Notes under the pieces: model-generated
What the model saw: the letters and a program-made list of their open reading frames with translations, nothing else
The model's database searches: none
What the model was told of the DNA's origin: nothing
NCBI GenBank assembly: GCA_017939755.1
Contig: JAGBAJ010000038.1
Location: forward strand, 79,216 to 143,215
Direction of reading: 5' to 3'
DNA: 64,000 nt
Source of the DNA: Clostridia bacterium
GTDB lineage: Bacteria; Bacillota; Clostridia; TANB77; CAG-508
Shown: piece by piece, positions 13,165 to 52,500 of the stretch
How the letters are laid out: each line of letters begins with the position of its first letter
How positions within the stretch are numbered: position 1 is the first letter of the stretch
Position numbers and translations under genes: made by a program

Positions 13165-13360
13165 AGCTATTCTAATCCCTGCATAGTGCGTGTAGACTGA
13201 AATTTTAGAACCAACGCGGATTAAACGGGAATCTGCCTTTGGATGTGGCGTGCAAGCTTAACTCGTATTAAGAAGCCCAGAAGCATTCAACAAGATACCC
13301 ACCTGTGAAAGCAGGTCCTTAAAATTTCACTAATCCTTACGGCTAAAGCGGGGCTCTTTT
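13165..13360 (+). ncRNA. ssrS: 6S RNA (SsrS)-like regulatory RNA
   Basis: About 195-nt non-coding rod. The 5' TCCCTGC pairs with the 3' GCGGGG, and TGAAATTTTA (13198-) pairs with TAAAATTTCA (13319-). From memory, it contains blocks reminiscent of E. coli and B. subtilis 6S (GATGTGGCG, GAAGCC, CATTCA, CCCACCTG...GCAGGTC hairpin). It has its own promoter and a downstream terminator. Confidence 0.65.
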
Positions 13361-37535: not shown

Positions 37536-37806
37536 ATCAATATCCTCCTTCTTTTGATAGATATATAATAATACAACGTAATTATATTTGTCAATTACTT
37601 GACTAAAAAAAAATATAGATATAAAATGAAATTGCTATAAAATGTAGCAATGCGTAATATTTTCGATAACAAATGATAAATAAATCAAAAGAATTTTATC
37701 TGCTTGTAATATATTTGTACTGCACATTATATAGTTTATTAATAAATATTCTAAAATTTAATAAATAGAATATTTTATTAAAAAAAATACAAATATGGAG
37801 GCACAT

Positions 37807-39444
37807 ATGATTGAGATAACATATAAAGGTGATACAATAAAAACTGAAAATATAAAGGTGGTAGATTTATTAAAAGACGAAATAAATAATTGTCAAGCGA
37901 TTGCTTGTAGATTTAATAATGAAGTTAAGTCTTTAAGTTATGAATTAACACAAAATGGTAAAATTGAATTAATAGATATGTCAGATAGAGATGGTAGAAG
38001 AGTATATATAAGAGGATTAGTTTATATTTTAACTAAAGCTTTTAGTGAGTTATATCCTAATGCTAAGACAGAAATAAATTATCAATTGTCTAATTCTATG
38101 CTTTGTGAAGTAGTTGATGAAAATGTTACTGATGAAATGATTGAAAATATAAATAAAAAAGTAGCTGAGATTATTGAAAAAGATATTCCAATAATAAAGA
38201 AGGAAATGTCAAAGTCTGAAGCGAAAGCTTTTTACGATATTGAAAAAAATGAAAAGGGTAGACTTCAAATAGAATATGGTAAAAAGGATGTTGTAAGCTT
38301 ATATTATTGTGAAGACTACTATAATTATTTTTATGGTGTTATGCCGATATCAACAGGTTTTGCTAAGATATATGAAATTGTAAAATATCATAGTGGAATT
38401 CTTATTAGATATCCTAGCAAAAAGGATATTACCAAGTTGCCAGAGTTTAAAGAAAATAAAAAACTTCTAGAGACATTGGATGAATATGAAGAGCTACATG
38501 AAACTCTTCATGTACAAACGCTATATAAATTAAATAGAATAATAAAGAAAAACAAAATAAAAGAATATATTTTATTAGATGAGGCTTTGCATGAGAAAAA
38601 ATTAGCTGCTATAGCCGATGACATAGTGAAAAGGGAAAAGGTAAAAGTTATTTTAATAGCAGGGCCATCTTCATCTGGAAAAACAACATTTGCACAAAGA
38701 CTGGGCATACAATTACGTCTAAATGGATTAAAACCTGTTACATTATCAGTTGATAACTATTTTGTTGAAAGAGCGGATAATCCAAAAGACGAAAATGGAG
38801 AGTATGATTTTGAATGCATAGAAGCAATTGACACAAAGTTGTTTAATGATCATTTATTGAAATTATTAAATGGTGAAGAAATTGATGTACCTACATTTGA
38901 TTTTGAAGTTGGAACTAAACGTTATAATGGCGAAAAATTAAGATTAAAAGATGACCAAATATTAGTTATTGAGGGAATTCATTGTCTAAATGATAAACTT
39001 ACTCCACTTATTAGCAAGGAACAAAAATATAAAATATACATTAGTTGTCTAACTGTATTAAATATGGATTACAACAATAGAATTTCAACAACTGATTCAA
39101 GATTGATTAGAAGAATTGTTAGAGATAGCCAATTTAGAGGATATAAAGCACTACATACATTAAACATGTGGGAATCAGTAAATAAGGGCGAAGAGAAGAA
39201 TATTTTTCCATTCCAAGAGCAAGCAGATAGCATGTTTAATTCATCTTTAATATACGAATTGGCGGTTTTAAAGGATTATGCGTTACCATTACTAAAGGAA
39301 ATTGATAATACTAATCCTGCATATTCTGAGGCTAGAAAATTAATTTCTATGCTAGAGTATTTTGAATCTGTACCAGAAGAATATGTACCAAAAAATTCTC
39401 TATTAAGAGAATTCTTGGGAGGTAGTATCTTCTATAATAATTAA
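37807..39444 (+). CDS. Uridine kinase-family nucleoside kinase with N-terminal TGS-like/ThrRS-like region
   Basis: P-loop IAGPSSSGKTTFAQRL and the uridine kinase core ...VIEGIHCLND. ATG at 37807 after GGAGG. Confidence 0.75.
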   Translation: MIEITYKGDTIKTENIKVVDLLKDEINNCQAIACRFNNEVKSLSYELTQNGKIELIDMSDRDGRRVYIRGLVYILTKAFSELYPNAKTEINYQLSNSMLCEVVDENVTDEMIENINKKVAEIIEKDIPIIKKEMSKSEAKAFYDIEKNEKGRLQIEYGKKDVVSLYYCEDYYNYFYGVMPISTGFAKIYEIVKYHSGILIRYPSKKDITKLPEFKENKKLLETLDEYEELHETLHVQTLYKLNRIIKKNKIKEYILLDEALHEKKLAAIADDIVKREKVKVILIAGPSSSGKTTFAQRLGIQLRLNGLKPVTLSVDNYFVERADNPKDENGEYDFECIEAIDTKLFNDHLLKLLNGEEIDVPTFDFEVGTKRYNGEKLRLKDDQILVIEGIHCLNDKLTPLISKEQKYKIYISCLTVLNMDYNNRISTTDSRLIRRIVRDSQFRGYKALHTLNMWESVNKGEEKNIFPFQEQADSMFNSSLIYELAVLKDYALPLLKEIDNTNPAYSEARKLISMLEYFESVPEEYVPKNSLLREFLGGSIFYNN

Positions 39445-40620: not shown

Positions 40621-41346
40621 ATGGATATCAAGTTAATTACAAAAAAATGTCCAAATTGTGGAGCAAATTTAAAATTTAATATGAGTGATACTTCTGTTAC
40701 ATGTGAGTATTGCGGAACATATGCACTAATAGAGCATGATAGAAAAAATATGTATACTACTACAGAACCTGGCGTAAATAGAATATATGTAAATAAAGCT
40801 GGAGAGGTATTTAAGTGGGTAAGCCGTGCAATTATATCTGCAATGCTATTAATATTTGGAATTATGATGTGCTCGTTAAGTAGCCCTATTTATGGAGTTA
40901 TTTTAATTTTTGGTGCAATATTAACAATGTTGCCAATATCAATAAAGGGAATTGACAAGATACCACATTTGAGAGCTGCAATAATTGCTATAATATTTTT
41001 TGTTGGTTTCTTTGGCGGATGTATGTCTATGTACGAATTACCATCAGAATTTCAAGGGAAATACGTATCAGATACTTCAGGTATTATTGTTGAAATTAAA
41101 GGAAATAACATTAAAGTTACAGATGGTGATTATGTTGTGAAAGAAAAATTATATACGTGGGAAGAAACCTGGGGACACGTTACATATCACAATATAAAAG
41201 TAAACAATGGTGAGTATGAATTTAGATTGGTGGATCATGGTGGGGTAGAATTTCAATTTTATGAGAGAGCTCCATATGGCACCCCAAAAACTTTTTATTA
41301 CAATACAAAAAATAAGAGCAAATATATTTGTGAAGAAAAATATTAG
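40621..41346 (+). CDS. Zinc-ribbon membrane protein, function unknown
   Basis: N-terminal CPNCG...CEYCG, 3-4 TM helices, and a soluble C-domain. Confidence 0.6.
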   Translation: MDIKLITKKCPNCGANLKFNMSDTSVTCEYCGTYALIEHDRKNMYTTTEPGVNRIYVNKAGEVFKWVSRAIISAMLLIFGIMMCSLSSPIYGVILIFGAILTMLPISIKGIDKIPHLRAAIIAIIFFVGFFGGCMSMYELPSEFQGKYVSDTSGIIVEIKGNNIKVTDGDYVVKEKLYTWEETWGHVTYHNIKVNNGEYEFRLVDHGGVEFQFYERAPYGTPKTFYYNTKNKSKYICEEKY

Positions 41347-41383: not shown

Positions 41384-41416
41384 GATTCAAAGTATAACGC
41401 TTTGAATCTCTATTTT
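41384..41416 (+). terminator. Putative terminator hairpin
   Basis: Stem GATTCAAAG / CTTTGAATC with a T-rich tail. Confidence 0.5.
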
Positions 41417-41510
41417 ATATAATAGGAAAGCTCTACTTTCCTATTATATAAAAAATAAACATTGCACACAAATTTTCTTTGAAAATTTGGCGCATGAACA
41501 AATAAACATT
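41413..41510 (+). repeat. Family B repeat, partial (copy B5)
   Basis: Hairpin module TATATAATAGGAAAGCTCTACTTTCCTATTATATA, then AACATTGCACACAAATTTTCTTTGAAAATTTGGCGCATGAACAAAT (related to the second module of B1). Confidence 0.65.
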
Positions 41511-41552
41511 TACAAAACTTATTTTTATACTATATTTTTTTGAGGAGATTAA

Positions 41553-43553
<2,001 letters not shown>

Positions 43554-43577: not shown

Positions 43578-43994
43578 ATGGAAGAAAAATATAGAATGGC
43601 TTATGCAGAAGTTAACGAAATTTTAAAGTTATCATCTGTGGAGGTTACAAATAAAATACCATACAATTTTAGAAGAAAAATAATAAAAAATATGGATAAA
43701 AATTACGTTCCAAATATAACTCCCAAGAAAGATTTTTTAGAGCAAAATCTCATGAATGAAACGTACGAGATACTTAAGCTAATATATATAAAATATCTGG
43801 AACCGCAAAGCCCAAAAAAAGAAGTTACAGAAAAATTTAATGCTAATGATATTTTTAAAGACAGAAGAGCTTCAAATAATCAGTCGTCTATCGATAGTGA
43901 AAAGAAATCAGATGAGCTTATAATGATTAATCATAAATGGTACATCAAATTATTAAATAAGATAAAGAATTTTTTTAGAGGGAGTAAGGTATAG
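43578..43994 (+). CDS. Hypothetical small protein, paralog of 52153-52500
   Basis: AYAEVNEIL...NKIPYNFRRKIIKNMDKNYV aligns with AYTEVNAII...NKIPEKVRANIKQKMDKSYV. It starts 25 nt after ligA (SD AGAGAGAGG). Confidence 0.65.
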   Translation: MEEKYRMAYAEVNEILKLSSVEVTNKIPYNFRRKIIKNMDKNYVPNITPKKDFLEQNLMNETYEILKLIYIKYLEPQSPKKEVTEKFNANDIFKDRRASNNQSSIDSEKKSDELIMINHKWYIKLLNKIKNFFRGSKV

Positions 43995-45727
43995 TGGATA
44001 AAGGATTAGAATTAAAAATAAATGAGCTATTTGAATATAATTCCGAAAAGTCACAAGATTTTGAGATATATTCATATCCATATTTAATAAGAAAAATTAA
44101 TGATGAAAATTTAAAGCAACGTGCTCAAGCAAAACTAATACAGATTGCATTGCAAGATTATGATATTTCGGCTGTAGAATATATTTTAGAAAATTTGAAT
44201 ATGCCACAAGAAGAAAAAAATCCAGTATATATAGAATTATTAGAAAAAAGATTAAAAAAAATAAATTTAGATGAGATTAAAGATTCAGAGAATGACATAA
44301 GTTATAGATTGTCAATTTTTGGAGATTTTCAAAGAATTTTTTCAAATTTACACTTAGTTGAAGATGACGCTAAGTGGAAAAAAAATTTTATTGATAAATG
44401 TAGCGAAGCTCTTGATGGCTATTTAGAGTGGTATATTGGTTCTTATGAAGGTGGCAGAGAAAGTAGAATAATTAATGAACATTTACGCTACATATTATAT
44501 TGTGAAAATCCAGGTGATGTAAATATTCTTATGGAAAAATGGGGAACAGAGTTTCAAGATGATTATAAAAAGATAGTAGAGCTTCATTGTAATAAAAACT
44601 ATATAATGGATAGAGCAAATTCATATAGTTTTGACGAAGTTGACCTCGGAGTAGATGAAGATTTAACCATAGGTACAGAGATAGAAATTAATCAAAAGAA
44701 TAGACATGCTTTATACCCATTAAATGAACAGATTGGAATAGAAGAGTGGACTACAAGACCTGATGCAACTGTACCTGATGGAAATGAATTTATATCGCCT
44801 CCAATGAGAAATACTCCAGAAGATATGTGTAAATTTAAAGCAATACTTGAAACACTTAAAGAAACAGGACATTATTTTGACTATTCTGAGAAATTTAATT
44901 CAAATGCTTCTGGACAAATAAATATAGGACTGGATTATTTAGATACTGCTGAATCGATACTTACTTTTTTTGAATTATATGGCAATGCAGAAGAAATATT
45001 ATATCATATTGCTAATCCAGATGGGCAAATAACAAGACAACCAGTTTTTGATAATTCAAGAATGAATCCAATATCTACCCAAATTGGTAAGGTAAGTGTT
45101 GATGAAGATATTAGTAGAGACGAAACTATAAGGATGTTATCTGGATTTGACGATATACGAATGAAACATAAAAAAATGTCTATTTGTATAAGAGATGGTT
45201 TGGTAAAAGGAAGAGCTAGACTTGAGTGGAGAATGCCAAATGGAAGTTGTGAATTTGAGGTGTGGAAAGCAAATATTAAATTGATAGCTAAAATAGTTGA
45301 AAAATCAAAGGAAATAGCAAATATAAAGTTAAAATCCGATATTACCCCTGAGGAAGAAGAAAAACTAATGTTATTCGAGTCACTAAAAACTGAGAAATAC
45401 AAAGATGAAATGGACTACAAAAGACGAAATTTATTTGAGCCATTAAACTACAATGAAATAAATGACGAAAAATTAGTCGATTTTTTAGATTTAATTTTTG
45501 AAGATGAGAATGATAAAAAGGTATATTTTGATAGATATTATATGACAGAGCAATCTATAGAGCGAACTGGAACCAATAAATATTACCCATATAGTAGATG
45601 CGATAATCCAGGACAAGGTTTTAAAATGGTACAGTTTGAGAGGGTTTATAGAAGTAGGCAGAAGGTTTATTCTTATGATCCAGAAACAGGAAGATACACA
45701 GAGGACGAAGATTTTGGAGATAGATAG
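43994..45727 (+). CDS. Hypothetical 577-aa protein with amidoligase-like (Amidoligase_2/GCS2-like) central region
   Basis: The GTG start overlaps the preceding TAG (TAGTG). The motifs IGTEIEI, GNEFISPP and ARLEWRMPNGS occur in the order expected for the GxExE / E-x-x-SP / EFR signatures of the putative amidoligase family. Confidence 0.6.
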   Translation: MDKGLELKINELFEYNSEKSQDFEIYSYPYLIRKINDENLKQRAQAKLIQIALQDYDISAVEYILENLNMPQEEKNPVYIELLEKRLKKINLDEIKDSENDISYRLSIFGDFQRIFSNLHLVEDDAKWKKNFIDKCSEALDGYLEWYIGSYEGGRESRIINEHLRYILYCENPGDVNILMEKWGTEFQDDYKKIVELHCNKNYIMDRANSYSFDEVDLGVDEDLTIGTEIEINQKNRHALYPLNEQIGIEEWTTRPDATVPDGNEFISPPMRNTPEDMCKFKAILETLKETGHYFDYSEKFNSNASGQINIGLDYLDTAESILTFFELYGNAEEILYHIANPDGQITRQPVFDNSRMNPISTQIGKVSVDEDISRDETIRMLSGFDDIRMKHKKMSICIRDGLVKGRARLEWRMPNGSCEFEVWKANIKLIAKIVEKSKEIANIKLKSDITPEEEEKLMLFESLKTEKYKDEMDYKRRNLFEPLNYNEINDEKLVDFLDLIFEDENDKKVYFDRYYMTEQSIERTGTNKYYPYSRCDNPGQGFKMVQFERVYRSRQKVYSYDPETGRYTEDEDFGDR

Positions 45728-45760
45728 GGTATTAGTATTAAGGAAGGAATGAGATTATAC

Positions 45761-45997
45761 ATGGAAAATTATACTTTTGAAAATTTAGAGCGAGATTTAG
45801 ATAATGGTTACCAGATATTTTTTACATATGTACGTAATAGGTATCTTCTATATAAAACTTCAGAAAATAGCTATACACAAGAATTATTATCAGACCATCC
45901 AAAAAATCCTCAGCCAAGAATGCAAATTGTAACACACAAGAGAATTTTTGAGATGTTCCCATTTATGGAGGAAATTGAATATAAGGTAGGAATTTAA
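45761..45997 (+). CDS. Hypothetical small protein (78 aa)
   Basis: ORF in the same operon with short gaps on both sides. No motif recognised. Alternative ATG at 45749. Confidence 0.5.
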   Translation: MENYTFENLERDLDNGYQIFFTYVRNRYLLYKTSENSYTQELLSDHPKNPQPRMQIVTHKRIFEMFPFMEEIEYKVGI

Positions 45998-46008
45998 GGA
46001 GTAAGTGC

Positions 46009-46536
46009 ATGGATATTGAAGAGGTTAAACAGAATGCCAACAACAAAGAAAAGTTCATGGAATATGTTAAAGAAGATGGTTTAGTTTTAGAATGGGCTTC
46101 ACCAGAGCTGCAAGATGATAAAGAGCTAGTAATGGAAGCTGTAAAATGTGATGGTGGAGCTTTAGAGTTTGCAAGCGATAGATTAAAAGATGACAAAGAT
46201 ATTTTATTAACTGCAGTTGAGGTTAAGGGTTGGGTTTTATGCTATGCAAGTGAAAGGCTTCAAGCAGATAAAGATGTTGTTTTAAAAGCTGCGAGTCATG
46301 ATGGACAGGTTTTATATTATGCAAGTCAAAAGCTAAGAGATGATAAAGATGTAGTACTTGCAGCAGTTAGTAATAAAGGTATAATTTTAAAATATGCAAG
46401 CAGACGTATGAGAGAAGATAAAGATGTAGCTATAGCTACATTAAAACAATCTAAAAAAGCTTTTAGCTATATTGGTGATACATTAAAGGATGATCCTGAT
46501 ATACAAAATATTATGAATCCACCAACTGATGGATAG
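46009..46536 (+). CDS. DUF4116 repeat protein
   Basis: Five tandem repeats of about 30 aa of the type G..L.YAS..L..DKDVVLAAV, which is the DUF4116 signature. Confidence 0.75.
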   Translation: MDIEEVKQNANNKEKFMEYVKEDGLVLEWASPELQDDKELVMEAVKCDGGALEFASDRLKDDKDILLTAVEVKGWVLCYASERLQADKDVVLKAASHDGQVLYYASQKLRDDKDVVLAAVSNKGIILKYASRRMREDKDVAIATLKQSKKAFSYIGDTLKDDPDIQNIMNPPTDG

Positions 46537-46581: not shown

Positions 46582-46609
46582 AAGGATGGAAGATAAAATT
46601 TCCATCCTT
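46582..46609. terminator. Hairpin between convergent genes
   Basis: 10-bp stem AAGGATGGAA / TTCCATCCTT. The U-tracts are weak on both strands. Confidence 0.45.
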
Positions 46610-46640
46610 AAATTTGGATCACGAACAATCATATTTAGCC

Positions 46641-48485
46641 TTAAAGTTCAATTTTTGGATTATATTTTTCAAGCCACATATTTACTTGACATAGATAAGC
46701 TATTAGTTGTGGTCCTGTCATTAATTGCCCAAACCAAGGTCTTGAAAAAGCCTTACCATTGGTTTCTAATATTTCAAGAATATATTTTCTATTCAAGATA
46801 TTATTTATAGGCGCATTTGGATTATTCATAATTTTTGTTAATTTATTTTTTACAGTTGCAAGGTATGTCGGATTCCATGTTTTTGGATATGGGCTCTTTT
46901 TTCTTTCTACTATTTCCTCAGGTAAAATATCTTTCATTGCATACCTTAGCAAGCCCTTTTCACGGCCATTTAAGGCTTTCATTTCCCAAGGAATATTCCA
47001 TACATATTCTGCAAGCTTATAGTCGCAAAATGGAACTCTTATTTCAAATCCATTATACATGGCCATTCTATCGGATCTATCTAGTAATGTTTGCATAAAC
47101 CAATTTAATGTTAAGTGCGAAATTTTTCTTTTTCGAGCTGTTTCCATCGAGTCTTCATCAAGGATATCAACTTCGCTAAGCGATTCTTGATACCTATAAT
47201 CTATATAATTTTTCAAGTCTATTTTTGATGAAATAGATTCATTTAATAGATTTTGCCTTTCTGAAATGGCAATTGACCACGGAAATGTATTGCTTTTTAG
47301 AGCATCTTCTCTAAAGAACCAAGGATATCCTGCAAATATTTCGTCTGCACATTCTCCAGTAAGAGTGACTGTTGCGTATGGCTTTACATTTTTGCAGAAT
47401 AAAAGTAGGGAAGAGTCTACATCTGCCATACCAGGAAAATCTCTAGCAATCATAGCATCTTCTAATGCATCTGCAAGCTCTGGCGTATCTAGGGTTATTG
47501 TTTGATGATTTGTGTGTAACTTGTTTTGCATTAACTCAATGAAGTATTTGTCAGAATTAGGCTGAAAATCTGTTTTTTGAAAATTTTTATCATTATCAAC
47601 ATAATCAACGGAGAATGTATTTAAGTTTCCTAATCTATGCTCTTCAAAATATTTAGATGCATAATGTGCAATTATACTAGAGTCTAAACCTCCTGATAAA
47701 AATACACATAAAGGAACATCTGAAAATAATTGTCTATTTATTGAATCTTCTAATAAGTGTCTGACGTTGTTTGAAGTATCATTTAGACTATCATAGTGAG
47801 GCTTTGATTCTAGTTTCCAGTATTTTTGCAAGTGTAAACCTGACTCATTGAATATAGCAAAATGTGCAGGTTTTATTTCGTTAATATTTTTAAATATACC
47901 GCATCCTGCTGTTCGTGCAGGTCCAATGCCAAATAATTCAGCAACACTTTGCTCATCTAAAGTTGCTTCAACACCTGGATAGGCTAAAAGAGCTTTTACT
48001 TCAGACGCAAATATTAATGTATCATTTAAGATAGTATAGAATAGAGGCTTTACGCCAAAATGATCACGTGCTAAAAAAAGCTCTTTTTTATTGCCATCCC
48101 AAATTGCAAAAGCAAAAATTCCATTTAATTTTTTTACTAAATCATGATTCCAGTGCATATAGCCTTTTAAAATAACTTCTGTATCAGAATACGAGTCAAA
48201 TTCATAACCATTTTGTTCAAGCTCTTTGCGTAGCTCTTTTGTGTTGTAAATTTGACCATTATACACAATCGTAAATACATTATTTGAATTCATGTTTGTC
48301 ATAGGTTGTTTTCCACCATCTGGATCAACTACAATTAAACGTTTATGTCCAAGACAAATATTTTTTTCATAATAATAACCATCTTCATCAGGTCCTCTTT
48401 TTGATAGGGTATTGTTCATATTGTAAATATTAGTTTTTGAAGATATATCTTCTTTTAAATTTGCAAATCCAACGAATCCACACAT
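46641..48485 (-). CDS. asnB: Asparagine synthase (glutamine-hydrolysing)
   Basis: MCGFVGF N-terminal nucleophile Cys, SGGLDSS PP-loop, 614 aa. Confidence 0.95.
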   Translation of the reverse strand: MCGFVGFANLKEDISSKTNIYNMNNTLSKRGPDEDGYYYEKNICLGHKRLIVVDPDGGKQPMTNMNSNNVFTIVYNGQIYNTKELRKELEQNGYEFDSYSDTEVILKGYMHWNHDLVKKLNGIFAFAIWDGNKKELFLARDHFGVKPLFYTILNDTLIFASEVKALLAYPGVEATLDEQSVAELFGIGPARTAGCGIFKNINEIKPAHFAIFNESGLHLQKYWKLESKPHYDSLNDTSNNVRHLLEDSINRQLFSDVPLCVFLSGGLDSSIIAHYASKYFEEHRLGNLNTFSVDYVDNDKNFQKTDFQPNSDKYFIELMQNKLHTNHQTITLDTPELADALEDAMIARDFPGMADVDSSLLLFCKNVKPYATVTLTGECADEIFAGYPWFFREDALKSNTFPWSIAISERQNLLNESISSKIDLKNYIDYRYQESLSEVDILDEDSMETARKRKISHLTLNWFMQTLLDRSDRMAMYNGFEIRVPFCDYKLAEYVWNIPWEMKALNGREKGLLRYAMKDILPEEIVERKKSPYPKTWNPTYLATVKNKLTKIMNNPNAPINNILNRKYILEILETNGKAFSRPWFGQLMTGPQLIAYLCQVNMWLEKYNPKIEL

Positions 48486-49893: not shown

Positions 49894-52125
49894 ATGAGAG
49901 TATTAATATACGAAGGTAAGGAATTTAGGTCTATTAGTCAACTTGCTGCATACACGGGAATAGAAAGATCAAGATTAAGTAGAGCAATACAAAAGAATAC
50001 AGATACTCCGATAGAAGATATTATAGCCACTTTAAAAGTTACTAAAACATATACTTATAATGGAAAAGAATATGATTCAATTAGGTCTGCTGCAGATGAT
50101 TTAAAATTAAATAAAAATACACTATCTAAGTATCTAAAATTAGCAAACGATAACTTAGAAGCAGCTATGGAGTTATTCCACAAAGAGCATACTTTTGCTA
50201 CAATAGATGGTGTTAGGTATTCCTCTGCTGAAAAATTAGCACATAAACTAGGAGTTAACAACATTACGCTTACTAAATATATAAACAAAAGTGCAACTAT
50301 CGAGGAGGCAGTTCAAGCAATAATAAGTATGAAAAATAAATATGTTTGGAGAGGAAAATCGTACGAGAGTGATTCTAGCCTGGCGCGTGCAATGGGAATG
50401 TCACGACCTACACTTCTTAGACTTATCGAAAAAAATGAGAGGATGAGTTTAGACGATATATATGAGTTATATCATTCTAGAAATGACGGAAAATTTAAAG
50501 GATATACATATGGAGGAAAAGAATATTCTTCATTAAGAGGTATGCTTACAGATTTAGATATCTCTCCTCAAAGATATTACGGAAAAATCGAAGAATGTGG
50601 TGGTGATATGGAAAAGGCTATAGAGCTACTACTTGAAGAAAATGAAGAAAGAAAACATAAAGCTGAAGAAAAATTAAAATCAGAATTAGAGCAAAAAGCT
50701 CTAATGGAAAAGAAAAAAATAGAGGCTCCAGTGTACACATTTAATGGGGAGGAATATCAGTCTATAGCGGCATTATCAAGAGCAGTTGGGATTAGTGAAA
50801 CCACGATAAAAAGATTATTAGTTGAATACGGTAATGACTTAGATGCAGCCATAAAAGATAGAGCAGAAAATAAAATTATATACAACTATCAAGGTGTAGA
50901 ATATCCTAGCATAAAGGCTTTGTCTGCTGCCACAGGAATAAAAGAGCTAAGACTAGGAAGATATATACGAAAATATAATCGTGATGCTGAAAAAGCAATT
51001 TTTATGATCAAACTAAGAGATTCTAGACTAAAAGCTAATAAAGAGAAAGATTCAGATATAAATATTCAAGATATAGCAATTATATTAGGTATTAAACGTA
51101 GAGATTTAGAAACATTACTTAATAGTGGGATGTCCATTGATGAGATAAAAGATAGTTTATCCAGAGGAGATTTATCTGTAGCTGAAAGAGGTATCAGAGC
51201 AAAAAAAGTAATGTATGATGAAAAACAAAGTTTGCATGAATATTGTGTAGAGCATGGTTTGAACTATAGTTGTATATATTATGCAATGACAACCTATGGA
51301 AAGACTAAGGAACAAGCAATACAAAACTATAAGGAAAATGGACAAAAAATACCGACTGCATGGATTTATGAAAGATATGGAGTTTTACTAAAACATTTAT
51401 TACTTTCAGAAAATATAGATTCAAAAAAAATTATTGCACATATGCGTGTATTTGGTACTTCTTTAGAGGAGGCAATTGAAAACTATATAATTGATGATAT
51501 CTCCAAAGAAAGAGATTTAGATAAATTTTGGCAACGCGAAGTATATTCAGCTCTTACATTAGATATTTTTTCTGAGGATGAAAAAAATGATTTTATAAAA
51601 GAGTTTAGGATAAATTCAGATGAGATACAGGCTACAGAAGATTGTAAAGCAAGAATTGACCAAGTAAAAAGAAAGATGCTTCTTTACGAAATGTCTGAAT
51701 GTATACAAGAGGAACTATTTACTAAAACTGAAATGGCTACAATTATGCGTATGTACAATATATCTGCAGATGAACTTGAAACAATTTTCTTGGAGTTATA
51801 TTCTAAATTTGATAATAAAGTATTATTAGGTAGTGAGCAAGATGAGTTAACGAGAAGAAGGCAGATAATACAATATATAAAGGAATTACCAAGTTATTCT
51901 GAAGAGAATATTAGTGATTTACGAGCAAAAGTTTCTGAGGATGAGTATAAACATATTATAGAAACGTCAAATTTAATTCAGACATACAAAGAAGCGGTTA
52001 CTACTGATGCAGATTTATTAAAGCTTATGAGATCCACTGTACGTGATAATATATCAACTAATGTAGAAACAAGAAAAGAGTTATCTAAATCAATTGAACC
52101 AAAAGATAAAATAGTTAAAAGATAG
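49894..52125 (+). CDS. Hypothetical 743-aa protein made of tandem NUMOD1-like HTH modules
   Basis: At least 7 repeats of about 49 aa, Y.Y.GKEY.S...LA...GI....L.RYI.K.....E.AI (for example YTYNGKEYDSIRSAADDLKLNKNTLSKYLK and YTFNGEEYQSIAALSRAVGISETTIKRLL), plus degenerate copies. No nuclease motif was seen. Confidence 0.65.
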   Translation: MRVLIYEGKEFRSISQLAAYTGIERSRLSRAIQKNTDTPIEDIIATLKVTKTYTYNGKEYDSIRSAADDLKLNKNTLSKYLKLANDNLEAAMELFHKEHTFATIDGVRYSSAEKLAHKLGVNNITLTKYINKSATIEEAVQAIISMKNKYVWRGKSYESDSSLARAMGMSRPTLLRLIEKNERMSLDDIYELYHSRNDGKFKGYTYGGKEYSSLRGMLTDLDISPQRYYGKIEECGGDMEKAIELLLEENEERKHKAEEKLKSELEQKALMEKKKIEAPVYTFNGEEYQSIAALSRAVGISETTIKRLLVEYGNDLDAAIKDRAENKIIYNYQGVEYPSIKALSAATGIKELRLGRYIRKYNRDAEKAIFMIKLRDSRLKANKEKDSDINIQDIAIILGIKRRDLETLLNSGMSIDEIKDSLSRGDLSVAERGIRAKKVMYDEKQSLHEYCVEHGLNYSCIYYAMTTYGKTKEQAIQNYKENGQKIPTAWIYERYGVLLKHLLLSENIDSKKIIAHMRVFGTSLEEAIENYIIDDISKERDLDKFWQREVYSALTLDIFSEDEKNDFIKEFRINSDEIQATEDCKARIDQVKRKMLLYEMSECIQEELFTKTEMATIMRMYNISADELETIFLELYSKFDNKVLLGSEQDELTRRRQIIQYIKELPSYSEENISDLRAKVSEDEYKHIIETSNLIQTYKEAVTTDADLLKLMRSTVRDNISTNVETRKELSKSIEPKDKIVKR

Positions 52126-52152: not shown

Positions 52153-52500
52153 ATGTTAGATAGTAGAGCATACACCGAAGTGAATGCTATAATTAGTGCC
52201 TTATCTATACACAAAAGGAATAAAATTCCAGAGAAAGTAAGAGCTAATATAAAGCAAAAGATGGATAAGAGCTATGTATTTACCATTGATTGTAATGATA
52301 TAAAAAATACAATACTATTAGAAGATACAAAGAAAATTTTATCTGTATTATATGTTGATTATTTTTCAACATATGCAGAGCGAGAAATAGCTACTAAGAT
52401 TGAAAAAGATAGATATTTAAAAGAAGAGCAATTAAAATTAAAAAGATTTCCTATTGATGTTTTTGAAAAGAGAATAAAAAAGTATCGCGGAAATGGATAA
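52153..52500 (+). CDS. Hypothetical small protein, paralog of 43578-43994
   Basis: AAGGAGG SD. The N-terminal 75 aa align with the ligA-linked small protein. Confidence 0.65.
   Translation: MLDSRAYTEVNAIISALSIHKRNKIPEKVRANIKQKMDKSYVFTIDCNDIKNTILLEDTKKILSVLYVDYFSTYAEREIATKIEKDRYLKEEQLKLKRFPIDVFEKRIKKYRGNG

Follow-up and report, generated by a model that had tools for sequence, protein, structure and literature searches.

A predicted glutamine synthetase-fold amidoligase of a Q-x-N subclade and a facultatively adjacent small-protein family on the chromosome of an uncultured Clostridia bacterium

In a 64,000-nt stretch of the genome of an uncultured Clostridia bacterium (contig JAGBAJ010000038.1; hereafter the window, to whose positions all coordinates refer unless a locus is named), four open reading frames (ORFs), here called genes 1 to 4, follow the NAD-dependent DNA ligase gene ligA on the same strand (Table 1). 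A first-pass annotation, made from the sequence alone, had read these genes as a coherent, possibly conflict-associated modification system with the amidoligase-like product of gene 2 at its core. Our analysis leads to a narrower reading. We think it probable, on balance, that gene 2 encodes a chromosomal, lineage-restricted carboxylate-amine ligase with a glutamine synthetase (GS) fold, which belongs to a subclade with a rebuilt Q-x-N active site, that gene 1 is its facultative partner, and that genes 3 and 4 as well as ligA are mere neighbours. In the following, "the ligase" refers to gene 2 and its relatives, and not to the DNA ligase LigA.

The gene 2 protein is deposited, with identical sequence, as a hypothetical protein of a metagenome-assembled genome (MAG) labelled 'Clostridia bacterium'. 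A word-indexed search with this protein returned ten relatives, and the family profile built from these, run exhaustively with HMMER, collected 1,275 representatives (50% identity), of which 384 have E-values below 1e-30. The MAGs that contain relatives stem from goat and human gut and are labelled as Clostridia, Bacilli, Tenericutes, Erysipelotrichaceae or Clostridium sp. CAG:451. Of 77 aligned family members, 62 match the Pfam model Amidoligase_2 (PF12224) with E<1e-3, the best of them at 6.6e-20, and precomputed PF12224 domains are carried by P0008 and P0009, two proteins of the same subclade as gene 2, and by members of a sister clade with the canonical H-x-H motif. An AlphaFold2 model of gene 2, built on the family alignment, has a predicted local distance difference test score (pLDDT) of 88.1 and a predicted template-modelling score of 0.86, and consists of three parts: an all-helical part (amino acids 1-216), an alpha/beta part (about 220-445) and a C-terminal part with helices and a small sheet. 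When this model was compared with the Protein Data Bank (PDB) using Foldseek, GS (E 3e-4), YbdK (1r8g, E 1.8e-3) and GshF were found, all with a probability of 1.0, and in the viral model library BFVD the top ~30 matches are phage 'amidoligase enzyme' models (E 2e-6). In accordance with the first-pass annotation, which had recognised an amidoligase-like core with a GS/GCS2 fold from three motif blocks, these results support the view that gene 2 encodes a diverged, predicted GS-fold amidoligase-like protein, by transitive profile homology and modelled fold, and not by a direct profile match. The regions on either side of the core, for which no recognisable family had been noted, indeed matched no Pfam, NCBIfam or PADLOC model, and the family profile searched against PDB sequences returned only spurious designed helical repeats, which match the N-terminal region. 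H-x-H relatives have helical repeats, in variable number, in place of the N-terminal domain or in addition to it, and the C-terminal domain contains two residues, Y511 and R514, that are invariant in both clades.

The motif blocks lie at the positions where they had first been seen: GTEIE at amino acids 227-231 (E229 and E231; 44672-44686), DGNEFISPP at 262-270 (E265; 44777-44803), GQINIG at 307-312 (Q308 and N310; 44912-44929) and RLEWRMPNG at 409-417 (R409, E411, R413 and N416; 45218-45244). In glutamine synthetase, the histidines of the H-x-H strand supply a metal ligand and a nucleotide contact, and in YbdK, too, this strand contacts metal and nucleotide. The replacement of this block by GQINIG, already noted in the first-pass annotation, is borne out by canonical relatives, which align GH[IV]HIG at the same columns. 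In the top 160 sequences, this position is occupied by G-Q-[IV]-N-[IL]-G in about 25-30 cases and by G-H-x-H-x-G in 105. At the GQINIG columns of the 77-sequence alignment, Q..N occurs 22 times, H..H 54 times and H..N once, so that all 22 sequences of the Q-x-N clade have Q308 and N310 and all 54 of the sister clade have H-x-H. The single H..N sequence, P0024, is an H-x-N intermediate. The exchange does not stand alone: Cys-305 is changed to Ala, His-308 to Gln, His-310 to Asn and Thr-409 to Arg, and K393 and R400, both within the catalytic core, are new. Q308, N310, R409, R400 and K393 are 100% conserved in the Q-x-N clade, whereas the H-x-H clade has His, His, Thr and variable residues, respectively. 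The H-x-H sister clade in turn has an invariant Cys just before the histidines (CGGH[IV]HIG) and an invariant Thr at the position of Arg-409 of the Q-x-N clade; we know of no role for this Cys.

The acidic, metal-binding strands of the GS/GCS2 superfamily (G-x-E-x-E and a Glu further downstream) and its C-terminal E-x-R/N-G strand, which binds phosphate, are present in gene 2. Across the 77 sequences of both clades, E229, E231, E265, E333, E411 and N416 are invariant and R348, which also lies within the core, and R413 are nearly so; N427 is also kept in the Q-x-N and H-x-H clades. In the AlphaFold2 model, the conserved residues are found on predicted beta strands (226-234, 263-267, 306-312, 397-400 and 409-412), and judging from their position on these core strands only, the conserved residues of the Q-x-N site may cluster in one pocket. 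Because the core Glu, Arg and Asn residues are kept and the replacements are themselves invariant among proteins whose identity to the window protein is only 29-41%, the Q-x-N site looks to us, at the level of sequence, like a remodelled and re-tuned site and not like a decayed one.

Several observations weigh against the assignment of gene 2 as an active amidoligase. Directly scored against PF12224, the protein reaches 17.8 bits (E 0.0032), below the gathering cut-off of 22 bits, in an alignment of amino acids 263-434 with model positions 75-244 of 245; due to this sub-threshold match, and as its relatives pass the model, we call its family membership transitive. Similarly, PHROG 2443 ('amidoligase enzyme') is matched at an E-value of 0.002, and direct scans of all four proteins against Pfam, NCBIfam, PHROG and PADLOC yielded only matches to DUF4116 and sub-threshold matches to amidoligases. 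The Foldseek TM-scores against known folds are low (0.25-0.42), as the core alone superposes. An hhalign comparison of the family profile with the single E. coli YbdK sequence is not significant (Prob 2.75), and the only segment aligned in it places GQHVHVG of YbdK on the GGHIHIG/GQINIG strand of the family. The H-x-H strand typical of the GS/GCS2 superfamily is lost in gene 2, so that catalysis is not assured, and we know of no PF12224 member with a demonstrated substrate. One might therefore speculate that the Q-x-N clade consists of pseudoenzymes, which have no ligase activity and are retained as structural, scaffolding or regulatory ligand-binding proteins. Both histidines and the invariant Cys are replaced, the large non-catalytic N- and C-terminal domains would suit a binding function, and the Pfam score is sub-threshold. 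We nevertheless regard this as unlikely: the five core glutamates, R348, R413, N416 and N427 are all kept, invariance of the replacing residues at such low identity is what one would expect of a functioning, re-tuned site, and Gln and Asn are, as a matter of general chemistry, still able to ligate Mg or Mn.

Gene 1 is the only other gene of the group that has a reproducible association with the ligase. A word-indexed search with gene 1 alone found only itself, and a four-sequence profile was therefore needed to define its family. This profile recovers at least 423 clusters at 90% identity, a lower bound, of proteins with 140-156 amino acids, none of which has a Pfam domain or a name. The head of these proteins comprises about 75 conserved residues (EVYEII...NKIP..F....NMD..Y...ID.....T..ILALIYRDYL), which in gene 1 correspond to an N-terminal domain of four helices (amino acids 1-75). 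It is followed by a disordered linker rich in Glu and Lys with a conserved (E/K)K(Y/F)NxDN(L/I)F motif, and then by a variable acidic stretch and a basic amphipathic C-terminal helix. In the AlphaFold2 model of gene 1, the pLDDT is ~88 for the N-terminal domain and below 50 for the linker, and a Foldseek search against the PDB gave no fold match. The gene 1 family is thus a candidate for a new domain family of gut Bacillota, characterised by the conserved ILALIYRDYL helix and an EKYNxDNLFKK linker motif.

To describe the neighbourhoods of the ligase, approximately 40 loci with relatives of gene 2 were collected from first-hit look-ups, from scans of GTDB species representatives and of metagenome contigs, and from look-ups starting from relatives of gene 1 and from P0010, and collapsed to ~21 synteny types; every ORF of these loci was searched by single sequence and by profile. 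With the window counted, a gene 1 family member is found next to the ligase in four of the synteny types. A distance of 3-5 nt separates its homologue from the ligase gene that follows in L003/4/5/21/22/27, where the order is mreB, a radical SAM protein gene, a gene for an LPxTG surface protein, gene 1, ligase, a gene for a protein of ~85 amino acids and then gap-pgk, and in L007/L029, where uvrC, gene 1, ligase and a DUF4116 gene are followed by gatCAB. In L044, a member of the family (profile E 6.4e-33) is encoded two genes downstream of P0010, a canonical H-x-H relative that is 26% identical to the window protein. In a neighbour-joining tree, the window protein is placed next to lineages that are linked to xth and have no gene 1, which means that the linkage to gene 1 is found on non-sister branches. 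For the adjacency, four ligase contexts were seen where ~0.2 would be expected by chance in ~22, an estimate that assumes one to two gene 1 copies per genome. The facultative pairing of gene 1 and the amidoligase is real.

A few features of these loci are worth recording in their own right. The gene 1 homologue that precedes the ligase in L029 (1155-1629) is distributed over two reading frames, which indicates a pseudogene or an assembly error. P0011, the best match of the Q-x-N clade, and P0182, a relative of gene 1 with 123 amino acids, both list a longest contig of 15,628 bp; they are probably encoded on one contig and would then form another pair of gene 1 and ligase. The protein encoded directly 5' of the pair in L003 (2688-4151), L021 (3485-4960) and L022 (3469-4956) is a conserved secreted protein of ~490 amino acids, which has an LPYTG sortase motif and lacks Pfam domains, and the ~85-amino-acid protein encoded downstream of the pair in the same lineage is an orphan.

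Most synteny types of the ligase (~17 of ~21) have no adjacent gene 1 homologue, and three of the five gene 1 family loci sampled by gene 1 itself have no ligase within 5 kb. Both counts speak against a dedicated pair, and the partnership is, as a consequence, facultative at best. Together with the observation that the family, with its large number of clusters, is also found beside unrelated genes, this leaves some room for the idea that the ligase is a stand-alone enzyme that produces a lineage-specific amide metabolite of the gamma-glutamyl type or similar and that gene 1 is an unrelated, common neighbour; the closest solved folds, GS, YbdK and GshF, are indeed those of small-molecule ligases. 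We consider this possible, though rather unlikely, as the adjacency in four synteny types on separate branches, which include the 26%-identical H-x-H relative, is far above the chance estimate, and as gene 1 is translationally coupled to the ligase in three lineages. The most plausible interpretation is that gene 1 is a facultative partner of the ligase family.

The settings in which members of the gene 1 family occur without a ligase are diverse: one is located beside rpsF-ssb-rpsR (L023), one follows the gene for an HExxH protein near a resolvase (L024), and others follow the gene for a protein with NUMOD1/helix-turn-helix (HTH) repeats, as is the case for the shorter paralog of gene 1 in the window and in L041-L043. 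This paralog, which the first-pass annotation had correctly spotted beside a different large protein, matches gene 1 with a phmmer E-value of 3.8e-10 and the family profile with 5.6e-31. The preceding 743-amino-acid protein contains many NUMOD1/HTH-like repeats (NUMOD1 E 5.6e-15, and a dozen HTH families). Its pairing with the paralog recurs in the sibling-species loci L041-L043 with the same DJ-1/der/plsY/gpsA synteny, and in L041 the large repeat gene is split into two of 275 and 424 amino acids. We considered whether the large proteins encoded 5' of gene 1 homologues form one family and rejected this, as the LPxTG surface protein, the HExxH protein, the NUMOD1/HTH-repeat protein, LigA and UvrC show no mutual similarity. 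Since these proteins are dissimilar, the earlier suggestion that gene 1 is a shared adaptor or regulator module has no common client other than the ligase: the recurrence of gene 1 beside the ligase family agrees with it in part, and gene 1 is at most a candidate adaptor. A Pup-like C-terminal tag is not indicated for gene 1, because the C-termini of the family are variable.

Genes 3 and 4 and ligA do not share this recurrence. Gene 3 has no homologue in the ~40 related loci outside the window, ligA is next to the ligase in no synteny type other than that of the window, and a DUF4116 gene in the position of gene 4 is found in one other lineage only (L007, E 8e-44); next to the ligase, and with the window counted, DUF4116 is thus present in two synteny types and gene 3 and ligA in one each. 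The combined single-sequence and profile searches uncovered no further homologues of genes 1, 3 or 4 in the ligase loci beyond those listed here. Instead, the ligase has exodeoxyribonuclease III (xth), glycosyltransferases, an ankyrin protein, ribosomal protein L17, thrS, uvrA, MiaB, a GH5 cellulase, GNAT, sortase, a DUF2201 metallopeptidase or a SPOUT methyltransferase as neighbours elsewhere. Gene 4 is clearly a DUF4116 protein (PF13475, E 4e-60, 199.6 bits against a gathering cut-off of 24.9) and also matches PHROG 31839 (E 2e-39). Pfam reports four stretches of the 49-residue model, and by eye we recognise five clear units and one degenerate unit of ~25 residues, so that the five repeats counted at first were a fair count. 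We conclude that genes 3 and 4, like ligA, simply adjoin the ligase gene in this genome and are not parts of a conserved system, and that the ligA link is incidental. Because the genes occur independently of one another elsewhere, an outcome that the first-pass annotation had itself named as fatal to its proposal, the cassette part of that proposal is refuted.

The proposal of a coherent and conserved four-gene modification or conflict system, linked to ligA and built around the amidoligase, had drawn on the co-directional arrangement of the genes, their tight spacing, the Shine-Dalgarno sites and the lack of an internal terminator; one can add that gene 1 and DUF4116 both flank the ligase in L007 and that phages and plasmids often encode Amidoligase_2 proteins. 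In addition to the neighbourhood data, in which the flanking genes elsewhere are unrelated housekeeping and surface genes, the searches for an association with mobile elements or defence argue against it. In PADLOC-DB, genes 2 and 4 have no match, and genes 1 and 3 and the paralog have only partial matches at chance level (E>1e-3). A Q-x-N profile found nothing in IMG/VR, the INPHARED phages contain no match for the window protein, P0010 or a gene 1 homologue, and no gene 1 homologue was found on plasmids. Distant amidoligases that consist of the core only are present in IMG/VR contigs and on conjugative plasmids of C. perfringens. The latter, seen in 100 records (e.g. NC_007773, 54845-55453), encode a distant 'amidoligase family protein', which in one case is annotated beside a SWIM zinc-finger protein. 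A phage or plasmid origin of the locus was rejected on the basis of the negative searches with the Q-x-N profile, gene 2, P0010 and gene 1 and of the housekeeping flanks, and the mobile or conflict association once proposed for the locus is not supported. With the locus in a core-chromosome context, we regard a conserved four-gene system as highly unlikely.

DNA-repair genes are same-strand neighbours of the Q-x-N-clade ligase in 4 of the ~21 synteny types, a category that was chosen post hoc: ligA in the window, uvrC in L007 (3-1523) and L029, exodeoxyribonuclease III in L001 (7211-7963), L006 (1-402) and L010, and uvrA in L020 (7135-8871). A truncated ABC ATPase gene upstream in L009 was also considered as uvrA, and turned out to encode an ATPase of the transporter type. 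One could imagine that the ligase, together with gene 1, has DNA or repair proteins as its target. The count is above our chance expectation, and amidoligase-domain genes co-occur with thymidine-hypermodification genes of phages (PMC8989533). However, the category was picked after the data had been seen, ~17 other contexts contain no repair gene, lineage-specific genes sit among housekeeping genes in small genomes such as these, and the searches revealed nucleic-acid-binding domains in neither gene 1 nor gene 2. A role in DNA repair is, in our view, quite improbable.

From the fold, the family, the residue pattern and the neighbourhood statistics, we infer the following about catalysis, the class of substrate and the function of gene 1. 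The gene 2 protein would activate a carboxylate as an acyl-phosphate in an ATP-dependent manner, and the acyl-phosphate would then be attacked by an amine. Its metal or nucleotide site appears to be altered, and its substrate is probably unlike that of the H-x-H relatives. Gene 1, which is translationally coupled to gene 2, might be a substrate, an adaptor or a regulator of the ligase family. The large flanking domains of the ligase and the recurrent coupling to a small protein suggest a macromolecular substrate or adaptor. A bolder version of this idea is that the two families form a two-component protein-modification module of uncultured gut Bacillota, in which the ligase covalently modifies or conjugates gene 1 via its conserved disordered linker, the Q-x-N motif constitutes a switch of chemistry or substrate, and the repair neighbours hint at genome maintenance. 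We deem this improbable as it stands; if true, the module would be a functional analogue of PafA-Pup or RimK-S6.

The layout of the locus agrees with the first description in its details, namely the four ORFs with their sizes, the GTG start of gene 2, the 1-nt overlap of the gene 1 TAG with this GTG (TAGTG) and the identity of the upstream gene. LigA scores 849.2 bits with NF005932, for which the NCBIfam equivalog cut-off is 369, and its gene ends with a stop codon at 43553. GAGAGAGG is found 6-7 nt 5' of the gene 1 ATG, GGGAG precedes gene 2, and the Shine-Dalgarno-like sequences 5' of genes 3 and 4 are AGGAAGGA and AAGGAG, respectively. A consensus scan found no terminator-like site on the + strand between 41408 and 46582, in agreement with the first description, in which no terminator was seen between ligA and gene 4. 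Upstream of ligA, there is a promoter-like site (41509-41536) and a terminator-like hairpin (41384-41408), and the hairpin downstream of gene 4 likely marks the end of the transcription unit that reaches from ligA to gene 4.

Table 1. Positions of the genes, predicted domains and signals within the 64,000-nt window.
Feature	Position	Strand	Description
gene 1	43578..43994	+	ORF, 138 aa; member of an unannotated small-protein family
gene 2	43994..45727	+	ORF, 577 aa, GTG start; three-domain divergent Amidoligase_2-like (GS/GCS2-fold) protein of the Q-x-N subclade
gene 2, N-terminal all-alpha domain, aa 1-216	43994..44641	+	predicted, DSSP of the AlphaFold2 model; no Pfam match
gene 2, GS-like catalytic core, aa 220-445	44651..45328	+	predicted, conservation by clade; residues on predicted beta strands
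gene 2, C-terminal helical and small beta-sheet domain, aa 450-577	45341..45727	+	predicted; kept in both clades; no known family
gene 3	45749..45997	+	ORF, 82 aa (78 aa if the ATG at 45761 is used); orphan, upstream site Shine-Dalgarno-like
gene 4	46009..46536	+	ORF, 175 aa; DUF4116 repeat protein, ~six 25-aa units
ligA (NAD-dependent DNA ligase)	41556..43553	+	NF005932, 849 bits; upstream gene of the same apparent transcription unit, context only
hairpin, 10-bp stem	46582..46609		between convergent gene 4 and asnB
short paralog of gene 1	52153..52500	+	115 aa, without the C-terminal helix; directly after the 743-aa protein (49894-52125)

The genomic setting of the locus is the core chromosome of an uncultured bacterium. 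The window has a low GC content (~29%) and a positive GC skew, nearly all genes are on one strand, and housekeeping genes such as mutS, pgsA, ligA, asnB, rpmF and der are present as well as tRNAs and a 6S RNA (13173-13358; Rfam RF00013, 108.8 bits). The convergent asnB (region 46582-48485) encodes a glutamine-hydrolysing asparagine synthase with a class-II amidotransferase and a synthase part (TIGR01536, 510 bits) and ends 32 nt from the hairpin that it shares with gene 4. Amidoligases are often paired with class-II amidotransferases; asnB, however, is on the opposite strand, passes the cut-off of a housekeeping equivalog and is absent from the other ligase loci. Two further proteins encoded upstream of ligA drew our attention. 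An ORF of 549 amino acids (37795-39444) is similar to uridine kinases over its C-terminal ~200 residues, with a score under the equivalog cut-off (85 against 220 bits), and its N-terminal ~280 residues have no NCBIfam match at E <= 1e-10. Between pgsA and ligA, a protein of 241 amino acids (40621-41346) contains an N-terminal zinc ribbon (CxxC...CxxC), for which only weak zinc-ribbon matches were obtained, and predicted membrane segments.

Taken together, we delineate a chromosomal branch of amidoligases with more than 1,000 representative sequences in uncultured gut Firmicutes, and within it a small subclade of uncultured low-GC gut Bacillota in which the change from H-x-H to Q-x-N is coordinated with gains of Arg and Lys. 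We also reveal a non-random, facultative link to a previously undescribed family of small proteins, which could be a substrate or an adaptor of the ligase. The Q-x-N and H-x-H clades represent a natural pair of enzyme variants, which can help to dissect the role of the histidine strand. The negative result is useful as well: the four genes next to ligA are a genome-specific juxtaposition, and knock-out or phage-challenge designs that are built on all four genes would therefore be misdirected.

The kind of enzyme described here is already known, from prediction only. PF12224 corresponds to the 'COOH-NH2 ligase' family of Iyer, Abhiman, Burroughs & Aravind 2009 (Mol Biosyst 5:1636), as cited in PMC4431377. 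Gene 2 resembles this family in its GS-like core with G-x-E-x-E, E-x-x-S-P and E-x-R...N-G strands in the same order of elements. It differs from it in that its score is below the gathering cut-off, Q-x-N takes the place of H-x-H with coordinated changes from Cys to Ala and from Thr to Arg, and additional domains of ~216 and ~130 residues are present at the N- and C-terminus, respectively. Gene 2 is also chromosomal and surrounded by housekeeping genes, and its operon contains no adjacent class-II amidotransferase, whereas phages and plasmids are the setting of canonical members. With YbdK/GCS2 (PDB 1R8G, 1TT4) and glutamine synthetase (e.g. 8FBP, 7W85), the predicted protein shares the fold of the catalytic core (Foldseek E 3e-4 to 6e-3), at 9-13% identity and with the low TM-scores given above; it has neither the oligomerisation domain nor the N-terminal beta-grasp domain of GS, and the histidines are replaced. 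The 'amidoligase family protein' of the C. perfringens plasmids (NC_007773, NZ_CP065633) is the nearest annotated relative of the H-x-H sister clade (31% identity over the ~170-residue core, E 4e-11); it is plasmid-borne and shares the core only, the phage search with the window protein did not recover it, and no member of the gene 1 family was found on plasmids. Gene 4 is an unambiguous member of the DUF4116 proteins (PF13475), from which nothing distinguishes it. In the PafA/Dop-Pup system, a GS-fold ligase is encoded beside a small disordered protein. No sequence relationship connects our proteins to this system, the variable C-termini of the gene 1 family are basic and have no conserved GGQ or GGE, gene 1 has a folded N-terminal domain, and no proteasome or depupylase genes accompany it. 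The likeness is one of analogy only and lies in the arrangement, in which a ligase of the GS superfamily is translationally coupled to a small protein with a long disordered segment.

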